DNA from: Chloroflexota bacterium
Lineage (GTDB): Bacteria > Chloroflexota > UBA11872 > VXOZ01
Assembly: GCA_963663275.1 (NCBI GenBank)
Contig: OY760183.1
Coordinates: 3,072,001-3,136,000, forward strand
Direction of reading: 5' to 3'
Length of the DNA: 64,000 nt
Both the position numbers and the translations under genes were made by a program. Below are positions 6,114 to 56,182 of the stretch, piece by piece. How positions within the stretch are numbered: position 1 is the stretch's first letter; every line of letters starts with the position of its first letter. Below the pieces are notes generated by a model. The model saw only the letters and a list, made by a program, of their open reading frames with translations. It was not told where the DNA came from and did not search any database.

Positions 6114-7088
6114 ATGATTCGCTGTTTTATCGGCCATAGCAAAGGCACCGTCGAGGCGGAAATCGCCAAACTCACGGTGGAGAGAGACGCGATTGCCGAC
6201 CTCAATCGGGCCGTGTTGGACGGCGACGAAATCGACCTGGAGACCTTGCGGACGCATTGCGACACCTTGCCGTTCATGGGCGGCGGCAAGCTGGTCGTCG
6301 TGCGGGGCTTGCTGAGCCGCTGCCTGAAGGAGAAGCCGCTGCGCGAGGGGTTGCTGGCGTACCTGCCGGGACTGCCGGACCACTGTACGCTCGTGCTGGC
6401 GGATAGCGCCCTGCCCCGGGGGAGAGAGACGACCGCGCTCACCAAAGCGTTGCGCAAATTGCCGGACGCAACCGTGGACATTGCCGATCAACGCAAAGGC
6501 GCGCCGCAGATTGGGTGGATCGTCGAAAACGCCCCGCGCTTTGGCTGCGGCATCACGCGCCGCGCGGCGGAACACCTGGCGGCGGTGCTGCCCGACCGCG
6601 ACACGATCGAACAAGAATTGACCAAGCTGGCGAATTACCGCAATCGCACCGGCACGATCAGCGAGGAAGACGTGCACCTGCTGGTACCCCAATCGCGGGA
6701 ATCGAATATCTTTGCCTTTGCGGACGCCGTTTCCGACGGGCGGCGCCGCCAGGCGCTCGCGCTGCTGCACGACCTGCCCAACCAGGAACCCGGCTACGTG
6801 CTCGTGATGATTGCCCGCCAGTTCCGCCTCATCCTCCAGGCGAAACACGCCCTCCGCACGGTGCAAGCGCCCAACGAGGTGGCCCGCGCCGTCGGCCTCA
6901 CCCGCGCGCCGCCCCACGCCGTCAGGCGCGTCATCGCCCAGGCGCGCCGCTTCAGCGTCGACCAACTGGCGGCCATCCACGCCCACGTCGCCCGCACCGA
7001 CTTCGCCATCAAGCGCAGCAAGATGGACCCGGCCACGGCGTTGGACCTGCTGGTCGTCGGGCTGTGTTCCATCGCCAGCCGGCGTTAG
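6114..7088 (+). CDS. holA: DNA polymerase III delta subunit
   Basis: TLPFMGGGKLVVV, QELTKLANY, NIFAFADAV, ARQFR, DFAIK; adjacent to rpsT. Confidence 0.85.
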   Translation: MIRCFIGHSKGTVEAEIAKLTVERDAIADLNRAVLDGDEIDLETLRTHCDTLPFMGGGKLVVVRGLLSRCLKEKPLREGLLAYLPGLPDHCTLVLADSALPRGRETTALTKALRKLPDATVDIADQRKGAPQIGWIVENAPRFGCGITRRAAEHLAAVLPDRDTIEQELTKLANYRNRTGTISEEDVHLLVPQSRESNIFAFADAVSDGRRRQALALLHDLPNQEPGYVLVMIARQFRLILQAKHALRTVQAPNEVARAVGLTRAPPHAVRRVIAQARRFSVDQLAAIHAHVARTDFAIKRSKMDPATALDLLVVGLCSIASRR

Positions 7089-7258
7089 AGCCTGTTTACG
7101 ATCGTTCTGTTTGCACGAGGAACGTTCGCCCTGAGCTTGTCGAAGGGTGAACGGAACCGCCGCATATTGGCGAATAGCCTTTCATACTTCGACAAGCTCA
7201 GCACGAACGGTTTGCGACGGCTTCGCAGACACCCTCTAAGCAGATCGCAAACAGGCTC
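7088..7258. mobile_element. MITE with IS5 (IS1031-group)-like ends carrying REP-like palindromes
   Basis: TIR GAGCCTGTTTACGATC vs revcomp GAGCCTGTTTGCGATC (15/16); TTA on both flanks (7085-7087, 7259-7261). Confidence 0.75.
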
Positions 7259-7411
7259 TTAGGAGAACGCGCCGCGGCGGGCGTTAACCGGCGGCGCGAA
7301 CGCCAACCCTTCGTGTGGAGAAGATTCCGCAAAAGGCAAACCCCGCGCTTCCCGTTTAGCGGTTGGCGCGAGGCGTAAAACCCCCGCAGACGGTTGGCAG
7401 CACGAGGTACT

Positions 7412-7687
7412 CTAGGCTGCTCCGCTGAACGCCTGGTTGTAACGGCGCGTGAGTTGCGACTTGTGCCTGGCGGCGTTATTGGTGTGAATAACGCCCTTGC
7501 GGGCGGCGCGGTCGTAGCGGGCGCAGGCCAACGCCACGGCATCCTGCGCCGTCTCTTGGTCGCCGTCCGCGATGGCTTCGGACGCTTTACGGCTGAAGGT
7601 CTTCAAGCTACTGCGCACCGAGCGGTTGCGCAGGCGGCGCCGCTCCTGGCGGCGGACGCGCTTGAGATTGGCTCGTCTCTTGGGCAA
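7412..7687 (-). CDS. rpsT: 30S ribosomal protein S20
   Basis: KRVRRQERRRLRNRSVRSSLKT...DRAARKGVIHTNNAARHKSQL. Confidence 0.95.
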   Translation of the reverse strand: MPKRRANLKRVRRQERRRLRNRSVRSSLKTFSRKASEAIADGDQETAQDAVALACARYDRAARKGVIHTNNAARHKSQLTRRYNQAFSGAA

Positions 7688-7795
7688 TGTCTTGCGTCTC
7701 CTCGACTCTTTCTACCAGACCATGGCGACATAGTACGCCTGTTTCGCCCATTATACCAACTTCCGCCGTGCCGCGCCCGTTGTGAACTCCCATTG

Positions 7796-8118
7796 GAGCC
7801 CCTTGCGCAACCTCGCCAGTGGGTATTGAGACTCCCTCTCCCTGGGGAGAGGGCCGGGGTGAGGAAAATCCCCATAGACTCCCTCTCACTTCGCAAGATT
7901 TGGGCATGCTTCGCCGCGCAATCTCCCCTCACCCTAACCCTCTCCCGGCGTAGACCTTTGCGTAACCCCTTCCCCATTGGGGGGAAGGTTGGGATGGGGG
8001 GTGAAATGGCTTGACACCATGCACTTTTTAGTTGTAAAAGCACTCTGGATTCCGGTTTTCACCGGAATGACAGAGTTATGCAAAGGTCTCCGGCGGGAGA
8101 GGGGACAAGGCGCGCGCC
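7796..8118 (-). repeat. Composite repeat with paired CCCTCTCCC/GGGAGAGGG hairpins, homologous to 10309-11798 and interrupted by a MITE
   Basis: Reverse complement aligns by eye with the IS481 flanks (TTGTCCCCTCTCC..GGGAGAGGGTTAGGGTGAGGGGAGATTG..TGCCCAAA..CCTCACCCCGGCCCTCTCCCCAGGGAGAGGGAG). Confidence 0.75.
7951..8090. mobile_element. MITE with GAGACCTTTGC-type ends
   Basis: Ends TAGACCTTTGCGTAAC and GTTATGCAAAGGTCTC; 5-bp duplication CGGCG (7946-7950, 8091-8095); second copy at 39395-39691. Confidence 0.8.
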
Positions 8119-8134
8119 ACGCTGCCGCACCGGC

Positions 8135-8437
8135 CTAGCCGTCGGCGTCTTCCGCACTCTCCAGTTTGTACAGTTGCGTGGACGTATCGCGGCAGGTGGC
8201 CGTGCGCAGCACCGCGTCGCGGGAAACGTTGGTAAGGCTGGCCCAGCGTCCCCAGTGCGGTTGGCCCTTGGTCGCGTTGCCTTGCTCGCGCGCCAGCTTG
8301 TGGAGCACAGCAGTCGCGCGATTGGCGACGTTCGCCAGCATCATGGCCGCCGCGGCCGGCGGCAGTTCCGCGGCCATCCCTTTGAGCAGCGCGTCTACCT
8401 CTTTCGGCACCGCGCGGGGCTTGACGTCGATCTCCAT
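8135..8437 (-). CDS. Hypothetical protein (100 aa)
   Basis: ATG preceded by GAGGAG; coding-type codon bias; no recognised motif. Confidence 0.65.
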   Translation of the reverse strand: MEIDVKPRAVPKEVDALLKGMAAELPPAAAAMMLANVANRATAVLHKLAREQGNATKGQPHWGRWASLTNVSRDAVLRTATCRDTSTQLYKLESAEDADG

Positions 8438-9994: not shown

Positions 9995-10054
9995 CGCCGT
10001 TGCCAGGTGGGCTTGTAAGGTAACCGGCTCCGGTTAATCCCCTCTCCCCGAGGG

Positions 10055-10213
10055 CTGACAGGGGTAGGCACGTGTCATTCCGAGCGGAGCGAGGAATCTA
10101 GAACCGACGTTTTTGCAGCGAAAGCCTTAGATTCCGCGCTCTTAGCGACTCTCCGCTGCGCTCCGCTCGGAATGACACGGTGAAGTCGGATGTAGAATGC
10201 CTACCCCTGTCAG
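10055..10213 (+). mobile_element. MITE family CTGACAGGGG, copy 1
   Basis: TIR CTGACAGGGGTAGGCA / TGCCTACCCCTGTCAG; perfect 11-bp TSD CTCCCCGAGGG (10044-10054, 10214-10224). Confidence 0.88.
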
Positions 10214-10377
10214 CTCCCCGAGGGTGAGGGTGAGAGTGAAACTGTGTTGCTCCCCGAGGAGACTTTTGCGAAACCTCGCTGAGAGACGAACAGTTCCCTC
10301 TCCCTTTGGAGACTCTTGCGTAACCGGAGAGGTAGCAGACGAAGCCCAGCGCGCGTCTCTTGTCCCCTCTCCTGGGA

Positions 10378-11643
10378 TGTACAGTCCGGGGACATGGGTA
10401 ACAGTTATTCAGGGAGATAGGTTACACATTTTGTTCACTGAGGTCTACCGTTCTTATCGGATTGACAGCGAAGTAGACGTTCCAAACGCCGTCGGTTTGC
10501 GTGGGTCGCAGGGCGACGCGGGTGTGGGCGAAAGCTCGCCCCACGCGGAGGGTCTTGCCCTGGAACGAGATGCGGCCGCTGACGTCGACGGCGCGCACCT
10601 GGTCGTCGGGAGCGTAGGTGATGGGGGGCAGCGTTTCGGGAAAGGGCTGTGGACTGGGCGTGTACCGGCTGACGGGCGTGTTGAGCGTGAGGGCGTGGTG
10701 CGGGCGTTCCCGGTTGTAGAAGTGCCGCCAAGCGTCGAAGGCGCGCTGGCAGTGCTCCAGGTTGGTGAAGGTGCGACCGGCCAGGACTTCGCTTTTCAGG
10801 GAGCGGTGGAAGCGTTCCAGCTTGCCGAGGGTCTGGGGATGGTAGGGACGGCTGTGAAGCACCTTGATGCCCAGGCGCATGAGCCAGACGGTGAGCGGCG
10901 TGAAGGGATGGGCGCTGTCGTTGCCCCAGGGGGCGCCGTTGTCCATGAGCATGGCCGCAGGCAGGCCGTAGCGCCGAAAGACGCGGGTGAGGCGCTCCTG
11001 GACGGTCTGACCCCGCTCGTCGGCGCAGGCCTCCACAGCCAGGTTGTAGCGGGAATGGTCGTCGAGCACGGTGAGCGGATGGCAGCGGTCGCGAGACATG
11101 GCGAAATGCCCCTTGAAGTCCATCTGCCAGAGTTCGTTGGGCAGCGGGCGCTCAAAGCGAATGAAGGGCATGCGCTTGGCGCTCTCGGCCGGGTCGATCA
11201 ACCCGTGGCGCTTGAGAATGGCGTTGATGGTGCTCCTGGCGGGCACGTCGGCGTAGCCGCGGTTCCGCAGCATCCGGCCCAGCGCGTCCGCGCCCTTCCC
11301 CGGATGTGCCAGGCGCAAGGCGATGATGTGCCGCTCCATCTCTGGACGCGTGCGCTGTGGGCTGGTGTGCGGACGCCGCGACCGGTCCCCCAGGTTCTCC
11401 ATCCCGCCCTGCCTGTAGCGCGTGCGCCACTTGTAGCCGGTCTTGCGGCTGATGCCCATACGCTTGCACAGTGCGCTCATGCTCACCTCACCCGTCAGCA
11501 TCACGGCTATAAACTCTTCCCGCTCAGACATAGGTGTACTCACTTTCCACGACATGGTCGTCCTCCTCTAGTGACGAATTCCCATGCCTTATGGTGTAAC
11601 CTATGTCCCTGAAAATGTGTTACCTATGTCCCCGGGCTCTACA
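10378..11643 (-). mobile_element. IS481-family insertion sequence, intact
   Basis: TGT...ACA ends; 50-bp TIRs (10378-10427, 11594-11643) matching 43/50; flanks CTGGGA / GTGGGA. Confidence 0.93.
10422..11555 (-). CDS. IS481-family DDE transposase
   Basis: HTH ISRKTGYKW; DRSRRPH; WQMDFKG, MDNG, HPQTLGKLERFH (D-D-E). Confidence 0.95.
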   Translation of the reverse strand: MSWKVSTPMSEREEFIAVMLTGEVSMSALCKRMGISRKTGYKWRTRYRQGGMENLGDRSRRPHTSPQRTRPEMERHIIALRLAHPGKGADALGRMLRNRGYADVPARSTINAILKRHGLIDPAESAKRMPFIRFERPLPNELWQMDFKGHFAMSRDRCHPLTVLDDHSRYNLAVEACADERGQTVQERLTRVFRRYGLPAAMLMDNGAPWGNDSAHPFTPLTVWLMRLGIKVLHSRPYHPQTLGKLERFHRSLKSEVLAGRTFTNLEHCQRAFDAWRHFYNRERPHHALTLNTPVSRYTPSPQPFPETLPPITYAPDDQVRAVDVSGRISFQGKTLRVGRAFAHTRVALRPTQTDGVWNVYFAVNPIRTVDLSEQNV

Positions 11644-11948
11644 GTGGGAGAGGGTTAGGGTGAGGGGAGATTGTGCAGCGAGTTGTGCCCAAACCTTGCG
11701 GAGTGGGGCCGAACCGACGAGGATTCCCCCTCACCCCGGCCCTCTCCCCAGGGAGAGGGAGCTTCAATGCGCGCCGACCAGGGTTACGCAAAGGTCTCCC
11801 CAGGGAGAGGGAGCTTCAGTGCGCGCGCTGCGGATTCGGAACGCGCGGAGAGCCGCGCCGGGACGAAGAATGCCAAACGAGCGCCAATGGTTATATAATC
11901 GCCATTGGTTGATGTTGATATAATGCACGCCCCTTGGGAGGAACACCC

Positions 11949-15266: not shown

Positions 15267-15676
15267 GAAGCCCTCTGTTCCCTACACAACAAACGCGCGC
15301 CGCCAGAAACGGCGCGCGACTACCAACCATGTGCCGGGAATATCGTACCACGCCCGCGAATCACGCCGCTGCGGGCAAAAGCCGGCGGCCCTTTGCGCGC
15401 GTTGATGGGAAACGGCCCTCACCTGCGCTTCCCAGCCTGTTCGATGATTGTGCGACGATGCGAACTGCAACAGATAGGGCCGTATAGCTAGAGTATCCAA
15501 GCCCTGGGCCATCACTTCAGGTGTACCGGACTGTCAAATCACGGGAAGGGTGCTCAGCGGCTAGGCCGTTTCAACCTAACGGGGTCATTGCATGGCACAA
15601 CGGCTGCCGTTACAGTTAAACGGATTGGAATAACTGCCAGCAACTGTATCAACTAACTGAGCCGGGAGGGCGTAAG

Positions 15677-16339
15677 ATGTGGTCGCCAAGAAGCAAGCAA
15701 TCTCAATATCTGAAGTGCGGGAAAGAGACGTTTCGCGACCGGGCAGAGGGTGTTGGTTTTGACATTTTCAAGTTTTGGCGCTGGGCGCACTCCGACTTGC
15801 TGGGCAATGCCGCTCGCGGCGTCTTGGCCGAGTACCTGGTCGCCCGCGCGCTCAACTATACGTGTGAGCCGCGTCATGAGTGGGATGCTGTCGATGCTGA
15901 AACCAAGAGTGGACTCAAGGTTGAGGTAAAGAGTGCAGCCTACGCTCAAAGTTGGCCACGGGACAAGCCGTCAGTGATCAGCTTCAATATCGCCAAGAAG
16001 AAAGTATCGTGGAACGCAAAGACGGACAAGTATGAGAAGTACTGCCCACCCAAGCGTGTAGCGGACGTGTACGTCTTCTGTCTACTTATCGGTCAGTCCG
16101 ATTACCCTGGCCCCAAACCCGATCCTGACCCCGACCCCTTGGACCTGAGCCAGTGGGAGTTCTACGTGCTGCCTACCAAGAAGCTTCCGAATCAGAAGAC
16201 GATTAGTTTCAACCCGCTCAAAGATCTCGTGAAACGCGCGACAGGAAGAAGCGCGACACCGTATGAAGAGTTGGAAGACGTCATAGAGGAGTTGGGTAAA
16301 GGCAGCAAGGCCGCTACCGAAGACACATGCTGCTGCTAG
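15677..16339 (+). CDS. Putative PD-(D/E)XK nuclease-fold protein
   Basis: RGVLAEYLV...EWDAVD...KVEVKS pattern; lower GC than neighbours. Confidence 0.6.
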   Translation: MWSPRSKQSQYLKCGKETFRDRAEGVGFDIFKFWRWAHSDLLGNAARGVLAEYLVARALNYTCEPRHEWDAVDAETKSGLKVEVKSAAYAQSWPRDKPSVISFNIAKKKVSWNAKTDKYEKYCPPKRVADVYVFCLLIGQSDYPGPKPDPDPDPLDLSQWEFYVLPTKKLPNQKTISFNPLKDLVKRATGRSATPYEELEDVIEELGKGSKAATEDTCCC

Positions 16340-16557
16340 GCCCCGGTTGATCTCTCAAGTCCAGCTACAATCCTCGGCAGCGGACCAACAGCTTCTCGCT
16401 GAGAAACAGGGATTTCATGCAGCAGGCTGACAATGCTATTTCACTTATTGACAATAGCAGGGGAACTATAGGAATCGTCCACTCCGGGAAGAGCAATCTG
16501 CAGTCACTCACCGCCAAGGGCTTCACGCACAAACCGTGGCAACCTGCGTGAGCGTTC

Positions 16558-17250
16558 CTAGAGCCGACCGCGATTGAGTTCTGCCAAAGACAGCTTCCGG
16601 TCCGGATTGCGATAGAGCCACGTCTCGAAGTTCCGCTTGATGGCGGGCCACTCGCTGTCCAGCATGGCGAACCACGCGGTATCGCGATTGCGGCCTTTGC
16701 GAATCATGTGCTGGCGGAAAATGCCTTCAAAGCTAAAGCCAAGTCGCAGGGCCGCCGCCCGCGACTTTGCGTTCAGGGAGTCGCATTTCCACTCGACCCG
16801 CCGGTAATTGAGTCTGTCGAAGGCCTCGCACAGCATTAGATACGCAGCCTCCGTATTCGCCTGTGTCCGCTGGACATCCGGCGTATACCAGATGTTCCCG
16901 ATTTCCAGGCGGCGCATCTCCTCAGCAATGTTGATAATGCTTACCATCCCCACGCGCCGCTGGGATTCGTGGTGATGGACGGTAAAGAAAAGCTGATCGT
17001 CCGACGCTGCCTGCTCCGCAAGCCACGCTTGCATGCTCTCAATGCCGTCAAATGGACCGTACGGCAAATACGTCCAAACCTGCTCCCTGCTTCTAGAACC
17101 GTGAGTGCCCGCGTAGAGTTGCCCGACGTCTGCTTTGGGATCGACCGGCGACAGCGTGACAAACCGGCCGCAATAGTCCGCCCTGCGCGGCAATCCTACC
17201 GGGCCAACCGCCTTTACCACATTCCCAACCGGGAGAGACGAGCGTGCCAT
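16558..17250 (-). CDS. RimJ/RimL-type GNAT acetyltransferase
   Basis: WTYLPYGPF, EIGNIWY, YRRVEWKCDSLN, LGFSFEGIFRQH, GRNRDTAWF; start could be 17277. Confidence 0.9.
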   Translation of the reverse strand: MARSSLPVGNVVKAVGPVGLPRRADYCGRFVTLSPVDPKADVGQLYAGTHGSRSREQVWTYLPYGPFDGIESMQAWLAEQAASDDQLFFTVHHHESQRRVGMVSIINIAEEMRRLEIGNIWYTPDVQRTQANTEAAYLMLCEAFDRLNYRRVEWKCDSLNAKSRAAALRLGFSFEGIFRQHMIRKGRNRDTAWFAMLDSEWPAIKRNFETWLYRNPDRKLSLAELNRGRL

Positions 17251-17283
17251 AGGTGTTCCTGGAAGTTTTGGACGCAAGGAGCG

Positions 17284-17613
17284 CTATTTCCACTCGTCGT
17301 CCGTCGGCCAGATGTTGGAACTCCCCGCGCCCGCGCCGGCTCCCGGGGGACGCTCTTCCATCCAGTCCTTGACCGTGTCCCGCCACTTGATGAAGTGCGG
17401 CGCTTTCAGGTGCTCCTGAAAGGCGGCCTCGTCCACGTAGACTTCGTAGAGCCAGATACGGTTCGGGTCGGCGCTGTCCTGGACCACGTCGAACCGCAGG
17501 CAACCGGGCTCGTCGTTCACCGAGCCCTTGGCGTCCCCCAGCATCGCCTCGATGAAGGCGTCCTTATAGCCCTCCTTGATCTTGATCGGCGCGACGATGA
17601 TGTACATGCTCAT
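17284..17613 (-). CDS. ABM-domain protein (putative quinol monooxygenase / LsrG-like)
   Basis: EPGCLRFDV, LYEVYVDEAAFQEH, PHF. Confidence 0.88.
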   Translation of the reverse strand: MSMYIIVAPIKIKEGYKDAFIEAMLGDAKGSVNDEPGCLRFDVVQDSADPNRIWLYEVYVDEAAFQEHLKAPHFIKWRDTVKDWMEERPPGAGAGAGSSNIWPTDDEWK

Positions 17614-17750
17614 GCCTCCTCATGCTGTTTCGGCGTCACGTCTCTTCCGCCATTGCCTTGTCCATGATAATGCGGGCGCCATGCTTCGTACAGAGCGAGA
17701 CCCTATGCAGTTAATCCCGCCTAGGTCGACATCCTGGACTCTGCTCACCT

Positions 17751-17779
17751 TTGACAACAGCCGGCTTCCGTACTAGAGT
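17751..17779 (+). promoter_or_regulatory. Candidate sigma70 promoter for the PhyH-HEAT gene
   Basis: TTGACA, 17 nt, TAGAGT. Confidence 0.45.
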
Positions 17780-17908
17780 GATATAAATTCCAGCCTGAGT
17801 CCAGTCCCAATTGCAATACAACGAAGATACACTACAAGAGTAAAGTACCCTATCACATAGGGCTGCGCCGGCAGCGGACAGCAGCATTACAGGAGGTCAC
17901 CAACGACA

Positions 17909-20833: not shown

Positions 20834-22270
20834 ATGGTAATTCGCAATCGTCATCTCACCCGTAGGAGTGTCCTTGCCGGTCTTGCCGGGTCGCTGAGCA
20901 TCGTAGCGGCTGCCGCGTGCGCACAGGGAGTCGCGACAGAGATGCCGGCGGAAGAAGAGAAGCCTGCCGAGGAGCCCAAGCAGGCCGAAGAAGCGCCCGC
21001 GATGGAGATGGTAACGGTGCGCGCCGGTTGGATTTCCAACGATGCCGCGGTGATCGAGCCATTCTACGGCGATCTGCTCGTCGCCAGCTTCGAAGAGGCT
21101 CATCCGAACATCAAGGTGGAGTGGGAAGGCGCGCCGGCCAGAGAACACCATGCCAAACTCGCGACCCAGTTGGCGGCCAACGAAGCGCCGGACGTGTTCC
21201 ATAGCGACGGCGTCCGCTATGCGCTCTTCCGCGATTCCGGTTACATCAACGACCTCGCGCCCTTCTTGAAGCGGGACGCCGGTACGCTGCAAGGCGTAAT
21301 CGGCCCGGAATTCTTCCGCGATCCCGACGGCAGCACGTGGGGTATTTCCAGCAGCATCGGCGGCGTCGCCACGGCCTTCAACACGGCGCACTTCGATAAA
21401 TTTGGTGTCAACCGGCTGCCGGAGAACGGCATAAACTGGAATCCCACCGACGGCGGGGAGTTCCTGGAAATAGCCCAAGAACTCACCCAGCGCGGCAGCA
21501 CCGAGGCGGACCCGGTGTGGGGCTTCTTCAACAACAAGCAGATTACGGGCGACGTGCTGAGCCTGCTGGTGCAAAACGGCACGAATTTCCTCACTGACGA
21601 CTACCGCCGTTCGCGCATCCACGAGCCGGAATTCATGGAAGTGGTGGAATTTCTGCACAACCTGGAGTTCAAGTGGCAAGTATCGCCCAACCCCGACCAA
21701 GTAGCGCTGTTGCGCGAGGCCATACCTGAAGGGCAGACCTACCACGCGCCGTTTGCATTTCAGCGGACGGCGATGATGAACCTGCTCATGGGCCAGTCCG
21801 GCCGCTGGGGCGGCCCTGATCCGGAAAGCTTGCCAATTGTGGCCGTGAAGTTCCTGAACGGGCCCCAGAACGACAAGGTGCCAAGCGGGGGGCGCGTCAT
21901 GGAGCATTGGGGCAGTTCACAACAGCCCGATGAAGCCTGGGACCTCATGCGCTTCTTCCTGACCGATCACGAGGTGAATATCGCGACCTTTACTATTCTG
22001 AAGTCCGGTTTGCCGCCCAACACGAACTTCTGGGATGACGAACGCCTCTACGTGAAGGCCGGCCGCCCGCCACGCGAGATCGAGGCCTATATGGCCACGC
22101 TGCGCGAGGGCAAGGGTTACTACTGGCAGGTGAACGGCGTCTGGAGCGCCTGGATTGGGGCATACCGCTCCGGCCAGGCTGCGATATGGGCCGGCGAAGC
22201 CAAGGTAGAGGAGGCCATGCAGCAAGCCAGCAAGGAGGCCCAAGCGGCCTTAGACGAGTATTACGGGTAA
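20834..22270 (+). CDS. ABC solute-binding lipoprotein (family 1, carbohydrate type), paralog 1
   Basis: TRRSVL twin-arginine signal, AAAC lipobox, APDVF. Confidence 0.88.
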   Translation: MVIRNRHLTRRSVLAGLAGSLSIVAAAACAQGVATEMPAEEEKPAEEPKQAEEAPAMEMVTVRAGWISNDAAVIEPFYGDLLVASFEEAHPNIKVEWEGAPAREHHAKLATQLAANEAPDVFHSDGVRYALFRDSGYINDLAPFLKRDAGTLQGVIGPEFFRDPDGSTWGISSSIGGVATAFNTAHFDKFGVNRLPENGINWNPTDGGEFLEIAQELTQRGSTEADPVWGFFNNKQITGDVLSLLVQNGTNFLTDDYRRSRIHEPEFMEVVEFLHNLEFKWQVSPNPDQVALLREAIPEGQTYHAPFAFQRTAMMNLLMGQSGRWGGPDPESLPIVAVKFLNGPQNDKVPSGGRVMEHWGSSQQPDEAWDLMRFFLTDHEVNIATFTILKSGLPPNTNFWDDERLYVKAGRPPREIEAYMATLREGKGYYWQVNGVWSAWIGAYRSGQAAIWAGEAKVEEAMQQASKEAQAALDEYYG

Positions 22271-25645: not shown

Positions 25646-25866
25646 CCCGTTGTACTCCTGCCAGGCTTTCATCCACACGTCATTCCGAGCGCAGGGAGGA
25701 ATCCAGGGCGATGGAGCAAGACTCCCTTGCGCATCGCTCCACAGCTTGGCGGCTTGTGCAACGCCGCCTGCGCGCAACATGCCGCAGACGAGCGGCCGCT
25801 GCCGGTGTACACTTAAGCAATGACCGGTCGGAAGTGTCCGCGCTGCGTTAGGAGGTTAGCAGCACC

Positions 25867-26580: not shown

Positions 26581-26657
26581 TAATCGACCATTGAGTTTGT
26601 TTTCCAGAAGGTGGTACAGGTCTTTACCAGCAATCAAGAAGTCAACAGGAGCAATGC

Positions 26658-26948
26658 ATGAGCACACGTCCAGTCTTTCACCTAAGACTTGAGAAGACTT
26701 ACTACAATCGAGGATTCTTCAACATAAAGCGCAAGTTCGATCACTACGCAGGAGACGAGGGTCCCGTGACTTTGATACTCCGTGGGGGATGCACGATTGA
26801 GGCACGAGTGAACCGGAGTGCTCAAGGGAATGAAACTGCGCGAATCATGGGCGGACGAAAACTCCGTGACTGGTTTCAGAAGATGTACTCGGAGGGCGAT
26901 ACTGTCCCAGTGCGTTTCGACACGCCACGCCGGTTCTACCTGGGATAA
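26658..26948 (+). CDS. Small hypothetical protein (96 aa), lower GC
   Basis: AGGAG RBS; globular-looking sequence. Confidence 0.6.
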   Translation: MSTRPVFHLRLEKTYYNRGFFNIKRKFDHYAGDEGPVTLILRGGCTIEARVNRSAQGNETARIMGGRKLRDWFQKMYSEGDTVPVRFDTPRRFYLG

Positions 26949-26987
26949 CCAAACGCCACAGATGCTGCGCTGTGTGGACAAGAGCAT

Positions 26988-27061
26988 GTCATTCCGAGCG
27001 CAGCGAGGAATCTAGAATGCACGCATACTAGATTCTTCGTCGCTGCGCTCCTCAGAATGAC
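26988..27061. repeat. REP-like doublet GTCATTCCGAGCG..GGAATCT / AGATTC..GAATGAC
   Basis: Same doublet lies inside the MITEs at 10055, 39512, 46613, 53558, 55855; half copy at 25679. Confidence 0.8.
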
Positions 27062-27179
27062 AGTTGTGATACCGTCAATTGACTGCCAGAGTGTCTCGCG
27101 GCGCACATTAAAAGGGACAACGCGGGGCATGAAACCCCGCGCTCTTTAACCTTCGCCTTCTTCTCCCGCGCCCATCAGG

Positions 27180-30060: not shown

Positions 30061-30262
30061 CGTAGCGCGGGGGCTCGTCCCCCGCCTCCTGGCCTGCCAA
30101 TGCGCGCCCAAATGTCACCCATCTCTATCGCGTAGCGCGGGAGCTTGTCCCCCGCCTCTTGGCCTGCCATTGCGCGCTCATCTATCCCCTATCATCACGT
30201 AGCGCGGGGGCTCGTCCCCCGCCTCTCATCTCACGTAGCGCGGGGGCTCGTCCCCCGCCTCT
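30061..30262 (+). repeat. Four tandem GTAG-type REPs (GTAGCGCGGGGGCTYGTCCCCCGC)
   Basis: Copies at 30062, 30132, 30199, 30235. Confidence 0.9.
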
Positions 30263-36786: not shown

Positions 36787-38982
36787 CTAGACCAGCTTCT
36801 CCAAAGGCGCGAACGAGGCGGAGAGGCGCTTGATGCCGATCTCCGGGAAGGCGACGGTCACTTCTTCATCGAAGTCGGTGACCTTGCCGCTCACCACCGT
36901 CCCCTCGCCAAAAGCCGCGTGCCGCACCCGGTCGCCGTCGCGGTACTGCCGTTCGGACGCAGTCTGCTTGCGCGGCGGCCGGGCCGGGGCCTGCGACCCC
37001 TGCCACGCGGCCTCGGCCGGCGGCGGCGCCTGTATTGTCGGACCCGCCACAAGTTCCGGCGGCAATTCGGTAATGAAGCGGGAGGGCAGCCGCCCGATTG
37101 ACTGGCTGCTATAGCGCCGCGCCGCGTAGAGCAGATGGAGCCGCTCCTTGGCCCGGGTGAAAGCCACGTAGCAGAGCCGCCGCTCTTCCGCCATCTGTTC
37201 CGGATCGTCGAACGAGCGGATGTGCGGGAACAATTCCTCCTCCATGCCGGTCACGAACACCGCCGGAAACTCCAGCCCCTTGGCGTTGTGCGCGGTCATG
37301 AGGGTCAGGCCGCCCTCCACGTCCATGCGGTCCACGTCGGCGGCCAGCGTCGCCGCGTGCAGGAAGAGGTCCAGGCCCTGGGGCGGGTCGGCGTCGTCGT
37401 AGCGCACGGCGGCCGCGACCACCTCCGCCAGATTCTCCTCGCGCTCCTCGGCCTCATCGGCATCGTCGCCCGCGCGCACGTGCTCCAGGTAACCGCTCTC
37501 GCTGATCACCATGTTCACGAACGCGCTCAGCGGCATGCGCTTCACCTCCTGGCGAAACGCGCGCAGCATACGGCCCACGTTCTCAAGCGCGGTCCGCGCC
37601 CGGGTCGTCACCGGCAAGGGTTCCGCCAGCGTGCCCTCGGCGAGGCCCAGCAGCGCCGCGGCCGGCGGGACGCCCTGCATCTCCGACCAGAGCGTCAGCG
37701 CCGCCAGCGTCTTGGCGCCGATGCCGCGCGGCGGCACGTTCACGAAGCGCCGAAAGCTCACGCTATCGTTCAGATTGTAGATCACGCGCAGGTAGGCCAG
37801 GGTGTCCTTGACCTCCCGCCGCTGGTAGAAGGCCACGCCGCCCACCAACTGATACGGGATGCCGTAGCGCACCAGGGCGTCCTCCAACGCCCGCGACTGG
37901 GCGTTGGTGCGGTACATCACCACGCAGTCCCGCAGGCCCAGGCCCTCATCCTGCAAACGGCGCACGGCGTTCACGACCAACCGCGCTTCATCCTCTTCGT
38001 CCAGCGCCGGCATCACCACCAGCGGCGCGCCGCGCCCCAGGTTCGTCCACAGCCGCTTCTCCCGGCGGTGGGGCAGGCGGCTGATGATGCCGTTGGCGGC
38101 GTCGAGAATGGTCTGGGTGGAGCGGTAGTTCTGTTCCAGCTTGACGACGGCGGCGTCGGGATATTCGCGCTCGAAATTGAGGATGTTGCGCACGTCCGCG
38201 CCGCGCCAGCTATAGATGCCTTGGTCGTCGTCGCCCACCACGCAGATGTTGCGGTGCTTGGAAGCCAGCAAGCGCACCAACTCATACTGGGCGTGATTCG
38301 TGTCCTGGTACTCGTCCACCATCACGTAGCGGAAACGCTCCTGGTAGTGTTCCAGCACGTCGGGATGCTCGCGAAAGAGGCGCACGGTGAACATGATGAG
38401 ATCGTTGAAGTCGAGCGCGTTGGCCTTGCGCAGAATGTCCTGGTAGCGCCGGTAGACCCTGGCCGCGGCCTCTTCGAACGGGCCTTGCGCGTGCTCGGCG
38501 AACACGTGGGCCGTGATGAGTTCGTCTTTGGCGCGGGAGATGGCGTTCAAGACGGCGCGCGGGCTCAGGCTCTTCTCACCGATGCCCAGCGACTTGAGCA
38601 CGTCTTTCACCACCGTCAACTGATCGGCGTCGTCGTAGATGGTGAAGCCGTCTTCCCAACCCAGCAGCCGCAGTTCGCGGCGCAGAATGCGCGAGCAGAA
38701 GGCGTGGAACGTGCTGAGCAGCACGTTTTCGCCAATGGGCCCGGCCAGTTCACGCACCCGCTGCCGCATCTCCTCGGCGGCCTTGTTGGTAAAGGTGACT
38801 CCCAAGATCTGCCACACCGGCACGCGCTCGGCCAGCATCAGATAAGCGATGCGGTGGACGATCACACGCGTCTTACCGGAACCGGCGCCGGCCAGGATGA
38901 GCACCGGCCCGGCCGTGGTCGCGACCGCCCGCTGCTGCGGCTCATTCAGATTTGCCAAGAGGGATTCTGGGTTTATGACCAC
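36787..38982 (-). CDS. pcrA: ATP-dependent DNA helicase PcrA/UvrD
   Basis: AGAGSGKT, TFTNKAA, DEYQDTN, NYRST, KGLEF, EERRLCYVA; C-terminal Tudor-like domain; GTG start inferred. Confidence 0.93.
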   Translation of the reverse strand: MVINPESLLANLNEPQQRAVATTAGPVLILAGAGSGKTRVIVHRIAYLMLAERVPVWQILGVTFTNKAAEEMRQRVRELAGPIGENVLLSTFHAFCSRILRRELRLLGWEDGFTIYDDADQLTVVKDVLKSLGIGEKSLSPRAVLNAISRAKDELITAHVFAEHAQGPFEEAAARVYRRYQDILRKANALDFNDLIMFTVRLFREHPDVLEHYQERFRYVMVDEYQDTNHAQYELVRLLASKHRNICVVGDDDQGIYSWRGADVRNILNFEREYPDAAVVKLEQNYRSTQTILDAANGIISRLPHRREKRLWTNLGRGAPLVVMPALDEEDEARLVVNAVRRLQDEGLGLRDCVVMYRTNAQSRALEDALVRYGIPYQLVGGVAFYQRREVKDTLAYLRVIYNLNDSVSFRRFVNVPPRGIGAKTLAALTLWSEMQGVPPAAALLGLAEGTLAEPLPVTTRARTALENVGRMLRAFRQEVKRMPLSAFVNMVISESGYLEHVRAGDDADEAEEREENLAEVVAAAVRYDDADPPQGLDLFLHAATLAADVDRMDVEGGLTLMTAHNAKGLEFPAVFVTGMEEELFPHIRSFDDPEQMAEERRLCYVAFTRAKERLHLLYAARRYSSQSIGRLPSRFITELPPELVAGPTIQAPPPAEAAWQGSQAPARPPRKQTASERQYRDGDRVRHAAFGEGTVVSGKVTDFDEEVTVAFPEIGIKRLSASFAPLEKLV

Positions 38983-39141
38983 GGGAGTACACCTATGTTT
39001 GCGCCGGAGGGAAGCGCCAGTGGAGACTGAAGTAAGAGTGAGACGGAGAAACCGGCACCCAAGGAGGGGTCCTCGTATCGGGAACGACCAAGCATTGCCG
39101 GTCTTGCCGGGTGGGAAAGAAGCGGCGAGGCTGCATGGAAA

Positions 39142-39293
39142 CCTCCCTCTCCCGTGGGAGAGGGCCGGGGGCGCGGCAGGATCCGATAGTAGGCGCCGGC
39201 TGCTCTCACTGTGGAAGAGGGCCCGGAGCGTAGCAGGATCCAATAGTTCGCACCGGTTGCTCCCTCTCCCGTGGGAGAGGGCCGGGGTGAGGG
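39142..39293 (+). repeat. Three tandem REP-like CCCTCTCCC-GT-GGGAGAGGG units (period about 58 bp)
   Basis: Two clean copies and one degenerate copy with related spacers. Confidence 0.75.
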
Positions 39294-39394
39294 CAAGAAA
39301 CCCTCAGCGATCCCGCCTATCGTCATCTCAGGTCACGCAAAAGCCTCAACAGGGATTGTAGCACGTTCGGCCGTCGCGCGCACTTCATCCGAAA

Positions 39395-39691
39395 GAGACC
39401 TTTGCGAACTCTGTCATTCTGGCGAAAGCCGGAATCCAGGGCGCTGTTACGACTCAACAAAATATACAGTCAATACCTGTCACCCCCATCCCAACCTTCC
39501 CCCTCAATGGGCTGAAAGGGGTATGTAAATGTCATTCCGAGCGGAGCGAGGAATCTAGGAACGATGAAATGGCAGGGATACGCCTTAGATTCCTCACTCC
39601 GCTGCGCTCCGTTCGGAATGACACGTGATGTCGGATATAGGATACGTACCCCTATCAGCCCTCGATGGGGACGAGGTTATGCTAGAGCCTG
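39395..39691. mobile_element. GAGACCTTTGC-type MITE, degenerate second copy, interrupted by another MITE
   Basis: Aligns by eye with the reverse complement of 7951-8090 once 39512-39658 and one TSD are removed. Confidence 0.7.
39512..39658 (+). mobile_element. MITE family CTGACAGGGG, copy 2
   Basis: CTGAAAGGGGTA...TACCCCTATCAG; TSD CCCTCAATGGG / CCCTCGATGGG (10/11). Confidence 0.85.
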
Positions 39692-40041
39692 CCAAGCCAA
39701 AGAACCGCGGCCCACGCAATACCTACCGCGTTCCTATGAATTCACCTGCCGCAATCGTCGTCCGCCGCTAACCGGGCGCGCTCGCAACGCGCTTTCAGTC
39801 TGATCCCCCACTCGCGCCGCAGCCTCTTCCCTGAGCATGGGTAAAGGCTCGCGGCCTGGTTATCCGCCGAATTCCCTGGAAAACCGCACGCGCCGCGCCA
39901 AAAACCCAGTTCACCATAGCGCCAAGAGCGCATTTCTAGGCAATGCGGGCAATTTTAGTCCGTGCCGCGGTCCGCTCGGTGGCATCCAAAGCTCCTTCTT
40001 CTAATTCCCAGTATTTATCTAGGGATTTAGGCCGGAATCGC

Positions 40042-46612: not shown

Positions 46613-46868
46613 TGTAAGTGTCAGGTAATTCATTGACGGATATTGTAGTCGAATTGAGGTGACTTCAGTTCGGCTCACTGCTCGTCCACATGTCATTCCA
46701 AACGGAGCGCAGCGGAGTGTCGAACCCTGTTCGCGGAATCTACAGTGCTGAGCCAATCAGACTTCGCGTAGCATGGACTCTACATTCCTCGCTGCGCTCG
46801 GAATGACAGTAATGATCAACTCTTCCTCCTGGTGGGGGATTCTGTCAACGAATTACCCAACACTTACA
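46613..46868. mobile_element. MITE with TGT...ACA ends
   Basis: 28-bp TIR TGTAAGTGTCAGGTAATTCATTGACGGA vs TGTAAGTGTTGGGTAATTCGTTGACAGA (24/28); flanks ACTCC / ATTCC. Confidence 0.78.
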
Positions 46869-47361
46869 ATTCCCGCGCACACGGGAATCCATCCGCTCCT
46901 CATGCCCGAGACACCCGCGATCGCGGGACTCCATCCGCGTAGGGGCGGTTCGCGAACCGCCCCTACCGGTAGCGCAGGTTTGTAACCTGCGTCTGCTCTC
47001 TCCGGTAGCGTAGGTTTGTAACCTGCGCACGCTGTCGTACTTCTTACACACCGGCGCACAATAACCCATCCCCGTACGGGCCGTTCGCGAACCGCCCCTA
47101 CCGGTAGCGTAGGTTTGCAACCTGCGTCTGCTGTCGTCATACCAACGCAAACGGGAATCCGGCGGCGGGGGACAAGCCCCAATACTGTCGCATTAACGTA
47201 GCGCGGGGGCTTGTCCCCCGCCGGAATAAGAGAAATGCTAACGAAATGGATTGACCCTACGGAAGACGCAGGTTACAAACCTGCGCTACCAGAGAAACGG
47301 GCGTAGTTTTCACTCTCATTGTGTTTAATGCGACAGCATTGGGGACAAGCCCCCGCGCTAC
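46869..47361. repeat. Dense mosaic of GTAG-type REP families (BIME-like)
   Basis: GTAGGGGCGGTTCGCGAACCGCCCCTAC, GTAGCGYAGGTTTGYAACCTGCG (four copies) and GTAGCGCGGGGGCTTGTCCCCCGC units. Confidence 0.85.
47180..47341. mobile_element. MITE with IS4-family-like ends
   Basis: TIR CAATACTGTCGCATTAA vs CAATGCTGTCGCATTAA (16/17); perfect 11-bp TSD GGGACAAGCCC (47169-47179, 47342-47352). Confidence 0.85.
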
Positions 47362-47399
47362 GTTTGCTCGGGGGTGAAACGCGGGGCCGCCGCCCTTTG

Positions 47400-51222: not shown

Positions 51223-51228
51223 AGCGCC

Positions 51229-53511: not shown

Positions 53512-53557
53512 CCTCGACTGCCTGGGCCTAATCCTCTGCTGCCTCTGGCTAAGAGGG

Positions 53558-53717
53558 CTGACAGTGGTATGAATCCTAAGATCGACTTCACGTGTCATTC
53601 CGAACGGAGCGCAGCGGAGTGAGGAATCTAAAGCGCAGCCCCGCAAATCAGCATCTCTAGATTCCGCGAACCCTGTTCGACGCTGCACTCGGAATGACAC
53701 TCACATTCCCCTGTCAG
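53558..53717 (-). mobile_element. MITE family CTGACAGGGG, copy 3 (inverted)
   Basis: CTGACAGTGG...CCCCTGTCAG; perfect 11-bp TSD GGCTAAGAGGG (53547-53557, 53718-53728). Confidence 0.87.
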
Positions 53718-53842: not shown

Positions 53843-53901
53843 GAAAAGTCCGTATCCGTTCGTCCCGAGCTTGTCGAAGGACGAACGGATACGGACTTTT
53901 C
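53843..53901. repeat. Perfect 23-bp-arm hairpin built around a REP-like unit
   Basis: GAAAAGTCCGTATCCGTTCGTCC, 13 nt, GGACGAACGGATACGGACTTTTC. Confidence 0.85.
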
Positions 53902-53988
53902 GCACCCGATAGGGAAACCCCTGGAGAGGCTTGCAGCGGACCAGAGGTTTCCCTCTCCCTGGGGAGAGGGTTAGGGTGAGGGGAAATC

Positions 53989-54696
53989 CTACCGCAAGGT
54001 TACGTGCACCTCATTCCGCCGGAACCAGGGGATGGTGAATGGCGGGTCGTAGGTGGCGATCTTCCAGTCGCCGTAGTGTTCCAGGCCATTCGCGTTTAGC
54101 CATGCGGCCAGTTGCGCGCGGTGGCGTTCGGCGCTGTGGTTGGTGAATCTGCCGCTAAAGCGAATGCTGGCCACCCGGCGCTGCTCCACCTGGCGCAGCC
54201 TGACCCGGTGGTTAGTCGGCAGCGGCGCCGTGTCGTAGGTATAGCCCTCCGGCAAGACGAAGGCCATCGTCCAGGACTCGATTGCTTCCCCGGCCAGTTT
54301 CCCGGCGTAGCCGCGTTCGCCAACCGGGCGCGGTTCCACCAAGACCGGAACCGTCATCGCCATTTCTTCCGACGGAGCCGCGCCGGCGGGTTCAACCAGC
54401 ACCGGCGCGGTCATGTCAATGCTCTGGCGGCTTCGATTTTCCCCGGTAATGTACCCGTAGAGCGGCTGGAATGAACTGTTCGTTGCCCGGTCGAACGACC
54501 CGGCAAGCGTAATCTCGGCCATCACGTAGCCCGCGTAATCGCGAATCTCGATGTTGCCCTCTTTCACCGCGACGTCGTAGGCGGGCTCACCGTACTCGCT
54601 GCCAAAGAACGAGCCGAAGAGCAACGACCTGAAGAGATATGCCCCCGATCCCAGCAAAACCAGGATTGCCAAAACCACGACCGTTCTCCAAATCAT
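53989..54696 (-). CDS. SOUL heme-binding family protein
   Basis: EPAYDV, IEIRDY, FQPLYGYITGEN, IDMTAPV, MAFVLP, YDPPFTIPWFRRNEV. Confidence 0.9.
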   Translation of the reverse strand: MIWRTVVVLAILVLLGSGAYLFRSLLFGSFFGSEYGEPAYDVAVKEGNIEIRDYAGYVMAEITLAGSFDRATNSSFQPLYGYITGENRSRQSIDMTAPVLVEPAGAAPSEEMAMTVPVLVEPRPVGERGYAGKLAGEAIESWTMAFVLPEGYTYDTAPLPTNHRVRLRQVEQRRVASIRFSGRFTNHSAERHRAQLAAWLNANGLEHYGDWKIATYDPPFTIPWFRRNEVHVTLR

Positions 54697-55005
54697 GCGA
54701 ATCGCCGTCTTTCCCGTGCGCCAAGCCTCTGAATCCATTATTCCACAGTTTCTCAACCGCCGCGCGGGTGTGAGGCAGCGTCGCTCCGGCGGGGGACAAG
54801 CCCCCGCGCTACGAGACTTGCTGCTCGGCTGGCGAAATTCGTACGGGCAGGGACATTCGCCCCCAATGGCAGAGTTCGCGCTATTCTGCCAAACTGGTGG
54901 AACGAGTCCGGTTTTGCGCCGGTTCCTCTTCTTCCCAGGGAGAGGGAGCGCCAGCGCCCGCCGGGCCAGTTTTGCTACCGGACGGAAAGGAGCCTTGCGG
55001 CCACC

Positions 55006-55815
55006 ATGGCGAACACGGGGCAGTCTGCGCGCGCCGCCGTGCGGCTGGATCGACTGCTGGTAGAGCGGCGCTACTTTCCCAGCCGCGAGAAGGCCGTCTT
55101 CAGCATCCGCGCGGGCGGCGTGCGGGTCGATGGCCGCGCGCTCACCAAACCGGCCGCGACGGTGAATCCCCATGCGCGCATCGAGGTTGACACGCGGAGC
55201 GCGCTGCGTATCGGCCGGGGCGAGCGCAAACTGGCGGGCGTGCTGGAGCGCTTTGGCATCGATTGCGCCGGCAAGGTAGCCCTGGACGTGGGCAGCGGCG
55301 CCGGCGGCTTCACCTGGCGCCTGCTGCAACTGGGCGCGGCGCGGGTCTACGCGGTGGACGTGGGACGCGATCAACTCCATCCCGAACTCCGGGCCGACCC
55401 CCAGGTCACCGTGTTCGAGCAGACGGACGCGCGCCAACTCACGGCGTTGCCAATAGCGCCCCATCTGGCCGTGATCGACGTTTCTTTCATTTCACTGCGG
55501 GCAGTGCTGCCGCCGGTGCGCACCGTGCTGCGCGCGGACGCCGCCATGGTGGCGCTGCTCAAGCCGCAGTTCGAGACCGCTACGGTTGCCAGCGCCGCGG
55601 ACGCCGGCCTCACGCCGGCGCCCTCGCCGCGCCGGCCGGAGACGCAAGACCGCATCCGCGCGGCCTTTCGCGACTGGTGCGCCGCAAACGCTCTCACCGT
55701 GCGGGATGAGATGGCCAGCCCGCTACCGGGCAAGCACGGAACCCGCGAAGTCTTCTTCCACCTTACCAACGCAAACTCCGGTGCGCCTGCCTCCAGTGAC
55801 CTTTCTCGCAGTTGA
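55006..55815 (+). CDS. tlyA: TlyA-family rRNA 2'-O-methyltransferase
   Basis: S4 domain RLDRLLV; DVGSGAGGFT, DVSFISL, KPQFE. Confidence 0.88.
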   Translation: MANTGQSARAAVRLDRLLVERRYFPSREKAVFSIRAGGVRVDGRALTKPAATVNPHARIEVDTRSALRIGRGERKLAGVLERFGIDCAGKVALDVGSGAGGFTWRLLQLGAARVYAVDVGRDQLHPELRADPQVTVFEQTDARQLTALPIAPHLAVIDVSFISLRAVLPPVRTVLRADAAMVALLKPQFETATVASAADAGLTPAPSPRRPETQDRIRAAFRDWCAANALTVRDEMASPLPGKHGTREVFFHLTNANSGAPASSDLSRS

Positions 55816-55854
55816 AAGCCCTCTAAGACCGCAGCCATGTTCCCTTTCCAATTG

Positions 55855-56001
55855 CCGACAGGGGTAGGCAAACGTCATTTCGAGCGGAGCGAGAAATCTA
55901 GTATTGCTGGTTTTGCAGGGTGGCGCCTTAGATTCCTCTCTCCGCTGCGCTCCGTTAGGAATGACACGAGAAGTCGGATGTAGAGTGCCTACCCCTGTCA
56001 G
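55855..56001 (+). mobile_element. MITE family CTGACAGGGG, copy 4
   Basis: CCGACAGGGGTAGGCA / TGCCTACCCCTGTCAG; TSD CTTTCCAATTG / GTTTCCGATTG (9/11). Confidence 0.82.
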
Positions 56002-56182
56002 GTTTCCGATTGGAAAAGGGCTAGGGAGAAGGCGAATGTCCTCTATCCGGCCCGTTTTCGCCGGTACGCGCAGTCCGCGCAAGCCTACCCCTCACCCCGG
56101 CCCTCTCCCCAGGGAGAGGGGGCAGAATCGCGCTTCTTACGAGAAAGGAAGCCTTGCGGCGCCGCCTAGTCCGCCGCACTGC

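Follow-up and report, generated by a model that had tools for sequence, protein, structure and literature searches.

Genomic Context of the Repeats

We analyzed a stretch of 64,000 nucleotides from a Chloroflexota bacterium (GenBank assembly GCA_963663275.1, contig OY760183.1, positions 3,072,001 to 3,136,000; hereafter the window), the intergenic spaces of which are densely filled with repeats. These spaces most probably hold non-autonomous derivatives of DDE transposons, with at least five types of terminal inverted repeat (TIR) and target site duplication (TSD), together with one intact insertion sequence (IS) of the IS481 family, all landing with a bias to dyad symmetry. The window has a G+C content of about 64%, and its genes are ordinary chromosomal ones (plsX, holA, rpsT, queA, gpsA, pcrA/uvrD, murG, recG, rpmB, ABC transporters and others). 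[quoted passage not shown] Many of the surrounding repeats are hairpin modules (H1 to H5) or repetitive extragenic palindromes with a GTAG head (GTAG REPs, REP1 to REP4). Coordinates of elements given below without a strand belong to features to which none was assigned.

Among the 147 open reading frames (ORFs) of the window scanned against Pfam, the IS481-family gene was the sole transposase, and neither a REP-associated tyrosine transposase (RAYT) nor another Y1 transposase was detected. The ORFs that run across the MITEs, which at 140-256 bp stay below the limit of about 400 bp for this class, had no Pfam match, and Rfam gave no match in the window. A scan of genome contigs with the end pattern of Fam3 yielded nine loci (L001-L009, 176 kb), which together with the window make a sample of 240 kb. 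Six of the loci come from one Chloroflexota metagenome-assembled genome (MAG), and one each from a Dehalococcoidia MAG, a Thermomicrobiales MAG and another Chloroflexota MAG. Beyond the window, they contributed 12 copies of Fam3, four full copies of Fam5 with some fragments, and several degenerate copies of Fam2, while a second copy of Fam1 or Fam4 was not found in the 240 kb. No RAYT or other Y1 transposase, flanked by REPs or not, was identified in the window or in 126 ORFs from six of the loci (all but L002, L006 and L008). The Pfam transposase scans were negative except for the IS481 element and for fragments of an IS4-family gene in L007.

A strict finder of TIR and TSD pairs returned 13 candidates in the window, while 30 first-order Markov surrogates gave 2.07 on average; with a TIR match of at least 15/16 required, the numbers were six and zero. 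The finder retrieved only Fam1, one Fam3 copy (copy A) and parts of the REP cluster, and copies with mutated TSDs were found by BLAST and by eye. A preliminary description of this DNA had listed five types of non-autonomous element, each with inner REP-like palindromes, and no RAYT gene or matching autonomous IS in the window. All five types are present where it placed them, with the ends and duplications that it gave, and inner palindromes occur in each, true GTAG REPs being confined to Fam5. The ORF scans bear out the absence of a RAYT and of a matching autonomous IS from the window.

Fam5 Interrupts GTAG REPs and Is Linked to the IS4 Family

The Fam5 element of the window (47180..47341, + strand) is 162 bp long, with a TIR (CAATRCTGTCGCATTAA) matching at 16/17 positions and a TSD (GGGACAAGCCC) matching at 11/11. 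It carries one REP1 unit (47198-47221) beside its left TIR and one inverted REP3 unit (47267-47289). The element splits at its loop another GTAG REP1 on the - strand (47165..47364), the halves of which occupy 47165-47179 and 47342-47364; the rebuilt site is identical to an uninterrupted REP1 at 30/30 positions. Each of the five full Fam5 copies interrupts a REP, which is REP1 in three (window, L004 and L007) and REP2 in two (L001 and L009), the rebuilt sites of the latter matching REP2 at 26/26 and 28/30 positions, respectively. In every case seen (the five full copies, one remnant and one solitary end) the Fam5-type end abuts a REP half. Where copies are well preserved (three of the five), the TSD centre and the dyad are 0-0.5 nt apart. 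The duplications match at 11/11 and 10/10 positions in the best copies and are degraded in three, and the copy in L009 has a degenerate right end. Fam5 shows the "type 1 association" of Tobes and Pareja, in which all or most copies break the REP at the same point.

For the IS4 subgroup, excerpts of De Palmenaer et al. (2008, PMC2266710) give the ends -AATR--------WTW, direct repeats of 10-13 bp and a YREK motif. The Fam5 TIR fits that end signature, and its TSD of 10-11 bp falls within that range (Table 1 of the same paper). In addition, a 757-bp element in L007 (16367-17123) has Fam5 TIRs and contains fragments of an IS4-family transposase, the gene being broken and internally deleted. Its ORF pieces matched PF01609 (DDE_Tnp_1) with 25.1 and 24.2 bits (cut-off 23) and NF033592 (IS4) with 42 and 30 bits, which is below the cut-off of 115. 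The Y-2-R-3-E-6-K motif is readable in this remnant, and tblastn search retrieved IS4 family transposases on nine Rhizobium plasmids (about 34% identity). In the nearest plasmid-borne IS4 relative, ISRel1 (about 34% identity), an inverted-repeat scan made no TIRs evident. Judged from its ends, its duplications and the remnant, Fam5 looks like a derivative of the IS4 subgroup.

The REP1 units inside Fam5 copies are identical at 24/24 positions (window 47198-47221; L004 4941 and 19428; L001 1458; L007 2781), while the overall identity between the Fam5 copies of the window and L004 is only about 75%. This suggests constraint or gene conversion on the REP.

Fam3 Sites Are Offset from the Hairpin Dyad

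Sixteen copies of Fam3 were analysed, four in the window and 12 in the loci. Copy A (10055..10213, + strand) has a TIR (CTGACAGGGGTAGGCA) matching at 16/16 positions, an H2 module as its core and a TSD (CTCCCCGAGGG) at 10044-10054 and 10214-10224 that matches at 11/11. Copy D (53558..53717, - strand) lies in the opposite orientation directly downstream of rpmB, also with a TSD (GGCTAAGAGGG) of 11/11. The TSD of copy C (55855..56001, + strand; TSD at 55844-55854 and 56002-56012) matches at 9/11 and its site is a near-perfect palindrome, while copy B (39512..39658, + strand; TSD at 39501-39511 and 39659-39669, 10/11) is nested in the H5 hairpin of a Fam2 copy. Of the 16 copies, 15 were scored for duplications of 11 bp, and the copy in L008 showed a TSD of 9/10. 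The preliminary description had implied that TSDs would recur in other copies. This held for the best Fam5 copies and for 11 of the 15 Fam3 copies (11/11 in four, 10/11 in four and 9/11 in three), and failed for the remaining four, which show no match in register.

The two flanks of Fam3 differ in composition, with 80% pyrimidine in the left 8 nt and 84% purine in the right 8 nt. Position 1 of the TSD is C in 11/15 copies and position 11 is G in 12/15. At 14 of the 16 sites there is an overlap with a stem of 5 pairs or more (one mismatch allowed), and the TSD centre falls on one side of the dyad or the other, at a median distance of 3 nt. The commonest targets are H1-type hairpins (C/T-rich arm, short loop, G/A-rich arm) and the H5 variant; one rebuilt site (L009b) matches an uninterrupted H1 at 37/38 positions. 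Fam3 seems to target a sequence motif, displaced from the hairpin dyad by about 3 nt, and not the hairpin as such. A preference for a symmetric target (GGG-N5-CCC) is known for IS231A.

Neither the window nor the ORFs of the six loci yielded an IS with Fam3 TIRs. We infer an IS4-family origin for Fam3 only from its CT end, the family having 5'-CT or CA ends, and from its TSD of about one helical turn (11 bp). A Fam3 end in L009, to which a script had assigned a partner 2 kb away, was considered as a full IS and rejected, as it belongs to an ordinary MITE whose right end is degenerate. At L008 7770-8119, two Fam3-like elements stand head to tail, and their common junction resembles a TSD.

Fam2 and the IS481 Element Split Copies of the Same Repeat

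A repeat of about 165 bp with an H1 hairpin at either end occurs at 7787..7950 (- strand), where its terminal hairpin is split by Fam2, and again around the IS481 element, beyond which the rest of the repeat extends over 11644..11826 (+ strand) and includes a solitary Fam2 end (11783-11798). The two copies have 78% identity over 170 bp (7787-7954 against 11807-11638). Across 11743-11826, a 52-bp tandem duplication (two 32-bp copies, 97% identity) covers an H1 hairpin and the solitary Fam2 end.

The Fam2 element (7951..8090) is 140 bp long, with a TIR (KAGACCTTTGCRTAAC) matching at 14/16 positions, a TSD of CGGCG (7946-7950 and 8091-8095, 5/5) and two inner hairpins, H5 (about 7967-7990) and H4 (about 8040-8072). 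Its rebuilt site matches an uninterrupted H1 unit of L007 at 36/37 positions. As Fam2 itself has an inner hairpin of the H1/H5 type, we considered whether the H1 hairpins beside Fam2 ends are parts of Fam2. Against this stand the perfect 5-bp TSD at 7951 and the outer flanks, which rebuild an H1 unit that is intact elsewhere. About five Fam2 copies, mostly degenerate, occur in the 240 kb; the one at 7951 is the single intact copy of the window and the only one in which a TSD was seen. Two solitary Fam2-type ends (10259-10274 and 10309-10324, within 10259..10324, + strand) were also detected, the second of them between the arms of an H1-like hairpin.

The IS481-family IS (10378..11643, - strand) is 1266 bp long, with TIRs of about 50 bp starting TGTA and a TSD of CTGGGA/GTGGGA (10372-10377 and 11644-11649, 5/6). 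Its transposase ORF (10422-11555, - strand) scores 290 bits against NCBIfam NF033577 (cut-off 224), so that the element combines a transposase above the cut-off, TIRs and a short TSD, as expected for this family. The rebuilt site matches an uninterrupted H1 unit of L007 at 37/40 positions.

The host of the nested Fam3 copy B is a degenerate Fam2 copy (39395..39693, + strand; right end approximate), which has no clear TSD and is 78% identical over 141 bp to 7953-8090. Altogether three Fam2 copies have a Fam3 insert in the H5 hairpin (window 39395, L007 and L009). The nested Fam3 of the window is oriented opposite to those in L007 and L009, which implies at least two separate insertions into Fam2 H5. 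Close to this nest, three tandem H1 units (39143-39298) lie within and just upstream of the 5' end of the long ORF at 36787-39243. The annotated N-terminus of this ORF is probably repeat DNA read as protein, because its UvrD domain begins only at residue 99.

Fam1, Fam4 and the H2 Module

Fam1 (7088..7258, 171 bp) is a MITE-like element with a TIR (GAGCCTGTTTRCGATC) matching at 15/16 positions and a TSD of TTA/TTA (7085-7087 and 7259-7261). Its interior is an inverted pair of H3 modules (7123-7154 and 7178-7209). The TTA site lies in the loop of a predicted hairpin of -10.5 kcal/mol directly after holA. This hairpin is unique and not a repeat, and Fam1 has no paralogous target for comparison. 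The IS5-family subgroups IS1031 and IS427 have GAG ends and TNA-type duplications of 2-4 bp, which would suit Fam1. The stop codon TAG of holA (7085-7088) takes its TA from the end of the left TTA and its G from the start of Fam1, and the rebuilt site would retain an in-frame TAG for holA.

Fam4 (46613..46868, 256 bp) is likewise MITE-like, with a 28-bp TIR starting TGTAAG (24/28), a TSD of ACTCC/ATTCC (4/5) and an H2 core at 46687-46808. Its rebuilt site matches an intact H4 hairpin of L004 at 27/29 positions. The H2 module, with arms starting TGTCATTCCGAGCG, forms the centre of Fam3 as well as Fam4. At least 15 solitary copies of it, with no TIRs or visible TSD, were also seen, many of them in L001, L003, L005 and L007. 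In the window such a solitary module lies at 26986..27062, without the TIRs of Fam3 or Fam4, and there is a half copy at 25679-25707. A TSD around H2 was sought by eye and not found, and H2 was not called a MITE. A low-G+C ORF of 117 aa without Pfam match (26595-26945) adjoins the solitary H2 module.

Insertion Sites Are Enriched in Hairpins

Sites were rebuilt for 25 insertion events, with degraded copies kept and with events that may not all be independent, and were compared with 5245 neighbouring positions and with 17080 non-coding positions, for which the mask used in the loci was crude and heuristic. Perfect stems of 5 bp or more, with a centre no more than 2 nt from that of the TSD, were found in 14 of the 25 events, compared with 8.7% of the neighbouring and 8.9% of the non-coding positions (binomial p about 3e-9). 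When stems of 7 bp or more were required, the proportions were 6/25 and 1.3%. The median DNA folding energy of the 41-nt sites was -6.8 kcal/mol, while the values for the two controls were -4.8 and -4.4 kcal/mol (Mann-Whitney p = 9e-5 and 2e-5), and energies of -10 kcal/mol or lower were reached by 8/25 sites versus about 6%. The uninterrupted targets with which rebuilt sites were compared are all paralogous.

According to the preliminary description, most copies and the IS481 element sit inside another palindrome and some are nested, and it had proposed to compare hairpin landing with the share of hairpins in intergenic DNA. Both by stems and by folding energy, landing exceeds that share. The elements did mostly land in palindromic repeats, Fam1 having a unique predicted hairpin as its target. 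Fam3 copy B inside Fam2 is a case of nesting, and a hairpin of the roughly 165-bp repeat is interrupted by Fam2 in one copy and by the IS481 element in another.

GTAG REPs Inside and Outside the MITEs

Outside the elements, the window contains a direct array of four GTAG REP1 units (30062..30258, + strand), a GTAG REP cluster (46939..47137, + strand) with REP2 at 46939 and 47074 and REP3 at 46969, 47005 and 47104, an inverted pair of REP4 (62066..62150) that resembles the REP doublets called REPINs, and a REP1 array with a 57-bp period (63840..64000, + strand) that runs off the end of the window. In each unit of the last array, REP1 comes first, then a second, small hairpin and then a spacer similar to the left TIR of Fam5 (core TGTCGC). 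This array may be derived from a tandemly amplified junction of Fam5 and REP.

A census of the 240 kb gave 33 REP1, 18 REP3 and three REP2 loci (six strand-hits). Of the 33 REP1 copies, five come after a Fam5 TIR and a sixth belongs to a Fam5 copy whose end has decayed, while five or six of the 18 REP3 copies are inside Fam5. The remaining REP1 and REP3 copies are solitary or in tandem arrays, and Fam5 is the only one of the five types that bears GTAG REPs. Since few REP1 and REP3 copies are in Fam5 and H2 is often solitary, MITE-borne spread is real but minor in this sample.

Other Features of the Window

Two paralogous genes for solute-binding proteins (20982-22265 and 24295-25578, 65% identity over 1.3 kb) lie on either side of a subtilase gene. 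The region 15267-17900 has a lower G+C content (0.57) and contains GNAT and ABM genes and ORFs without Pfam match.

Discussion

The anatomy of the elements, their duplications and their sites can be brought together in a mechanism of transposition in trans. The TIRs would be bound by transposases that IS copies elsewhere supply, and these would integrate the MITEs, each enzyme with its typical staggered cut (3, 5, 11, 5 and 10-11 bp for Fam1 to Fam5, and 6 bp for IS481). The choice of target would be biased to G+C-rich sequence with dyad symmetry. Within this scheme, the Fam5 enzyme would cut GTAG REPs symmetrically around the dyad axis. The Fam3 enzyme would prefer a symmetric motif made of a pyrimidine-rich arm, C-N9-G and a purine-rich arm, so that the TSD would fall some 3 nt from the hairpin axis, on one side or the other. 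Loops or arms of other repeated hairpins would be entered by Fam2, Fam4 and IS481. As the MITEs carry target palindromes, they would be targeted themselves, giving nested elements. Mobilisation by DDE enzymes, as the preliminary description had proposed, agrees with the fixed TSD length of each type, with the Fam5 TIR and with the IS4 fragments in L007. The data show the anatomy, the TSDs, the enrichment of the sites, the uninterrupted paralogues of the targets and the tie of Fam5 to the IS4 family. Mobilisation in trans and, for Fam1 to Fam4, the assignment to families are our inference, and the enzymes may recognize either the DNA sequence or an extruded hairpin.

Several observations weigh against this account. 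None of the nine loci is syntenic with the window, and no orthologous pair of empty and filled sites could be compared. For none of the five types did the window yield an intact autonomous partner with matching TIRs, nor was one found among 126 of the 168 candidate ORFs, which come from six of the nine loci (all but L002, L006 and L008). Four of the 15 scored Fam3 copies have no TSD in register, and two Fam3 sites (L007 9875 and L002) have no convincing hairpin. Fam1 and Fam4 are single-copy, so that anatomy is the whole of the argument for their mobility and the word family is unproven for them. The IS4 remnant in L007 is flanked by two inverted REP1 5' halves and not by a direct duplication. 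Recombination between two copies, as proposed for ISRm22, would explain these flanks. To these points should be added the possible dependence among the 25 events, the inclusion of degraded copies and the crude mask of the controls.

A wider reading, also put forward in the preliminary description, is that of a full self-reinforcing cycle, in which MITE hairpins are the main source of both landing sites and REP spread and so explain the repeat density. One part of it stood, since MITE hairpins are themselves targeted: the H5 hairpin of Fam2 holds Fam3 in three copies and two orientations, and Fam5 bears REP1, its own target type, which has stayed identical at 24/24 positions while the Fam5 copies that hold it are only 75% alike as a whole. 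The explanation of repeat density did not stand. MITEs bear only five or six of the 33 REP1 and five or six of the 18 REP3 copies, solitary units predominate for H1 and H2, and nesting of Fam5 in Fam5 was not seen. We therefore consider the full cycle unlikely. It is equally doubtful that GTAG REPs hitch-hike on DDE-mobilised MITEs and spread without RAYT, with at least three unrelated transposase types (those with 11-bp, 5-bp and IS481-type 6-bp cuts) converging on the same hairpins and a positive feedback building the repeat-dense intergenic DNA of Chloroflexota. If this were true, the IS4-derived MITE would keep its REP1/REP3 doublet identical as its other parts decay, and each of its insertions into a REP loop would seed new landing pads.

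The bias could also come from survivorship, with insertion being nearly random and only insertions into neutral repeats persisting, so that selection and not targeting would create a safe haven. All elements are intergenic, repeat-rich intergenic DNA is the least harmful place for an insertion, and the two Fam3 sites without hairpin would fit as well. However, the enrichment persists against neighbouring and non-coding positions, which are expected to be equally neutral, and survival would not account for the Fam5 ends, which in all copies seen meet the REP at the same position and have a TSD centred on the dyad, or for Fam3 duplications that keep a constant distance of about 3 nt from the axis, whichever side they lie on, which makes this explanation improbable. 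Slightly less probable still is a mosaic of REPs (a bacterial interspersed mosaic element, BIME) made by RAYT, an HUH tyrosine transposase, and by recombination, with TIRs and TSDs as by-products of inverted REPs or palindromic flanks and no DDE enzyme: although GTAG REPs are abundant in arrays and inverted pairs, the core of Fam5 is an inverted REP1/REP3 doublet, 27 of the 33 REP1 copies are outside MITEs, the unit of the array at 63840-64000 resembles a Fam5 end and the IS4 remnant is flanked by inverted REP halves, the perfect 11-bp direct repeats of Fam3 A, Fam3 D and Fam5 are non-palindromic and cannot arise from palindromy, duplication length is fixed per type, IS4 transposase fragments lie between Fam5 TIRs, Fam1 to Fam4 have no GTAG REP, and no RAYT was present in the window or in the 126 ORFs of the six loci scanned.

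Targeting of REPs by IS is already known, and the window presents the same habit in a little-studied bacterial group. REPs are reported as targets of IS from five families (IS3, IS110, IS4, IS256 and IS5) in passages of Tobes and Pareja (2006, PMC1525189) and of a review (PMC3184786). The IS4-family element ISRm22 of Sinorhizobium meliloti is described there with nine of nine copies in REPs, at the palindromy axis (sections of PMC1525189). Fam5 resembles it in its IS4-family chemistry and in insertion at the axis of a repeated extragenic palindrome; moreover, some ISRm22 copies have non-matching direct repeats, attributed in the same sections to recombination between copies, which may be compared with the L007 remnant. 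In contrast, ISRm22 is autonomous with 6-bp repeats, whereas Fam5 is non-coding, 162 bp long, has repeats of 10-11 bp, bears two REPs and occurs in Chloroflexota-type genomes. For some members of the IS4 subgroup, excerpts of PMC2266710 mention a "spectacular apparent insertion specificity" in the target arms; here, however, the only relative with Fam5 TIRs found is the broken 757-bp element, with no intact transposase gene. Insertion into REPs is also cited, in passages of PMC1525189 and PMC3184786, for IS1397 and ISKpn1 (IS3 family) and for IS621, ISPpu9 and ISPpu10 (IS110 family). As in the window, unrelated transposase families converge on REP-type palindromes in these cases, but the elements are autonomous and from Proteobacteria, and those of the IS110 family are RNA-guided with little or no TSD.

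GTAG REPs have been reported in Chloroflexi, and the REPs of Thermomicrobium roseum sit in small palindromes, according to excerpts of PMC3733652. REP1 to REP4 resemble the REPIN/RAYT system in their GTAG head, G+C-rich palindrome, arrays and inverted pairs, whereas Fam1 to Fam5 differ from it by TIRs and TSDs, which REPINs lack, and RAYT was not found in the window or the six loci scanned. Compared with the MITEs Nezha, Chunjie, Correia/NEMIS and RUP, as portrayed in passages of PMC3184786, the elements of the window are likewise short, non-coding, foldable and intergenic, with TIR and TSD. REP-loop targeting is not described for those MITEs in these passages, and several of the window types, unlike them, have inner hairpin modules in common and nest mutually. 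A limited literature search on MITEs with REP or RAYT, or in Chloroflexi, found no paper on REP-loop-targeting MITEs in the phylum.

For annotation, such repeats produce long spurious ORFs and mosaic intergenic regions, so that masking is advisable. Fam5, with its cut on the axis, and Fam3, with an offset of about 3 nt, form a natural pair for asking whether IS4-type transposases read a sequence or an extruded hairpin. The elements of the window would extend the targeting of REPs and hairpins from autonomous IS, mostly of Proteobacteria, to non-autonomous MITEs in Chloroflexota-type genomes, where several types of transposon have common landing sites and nest in each other.

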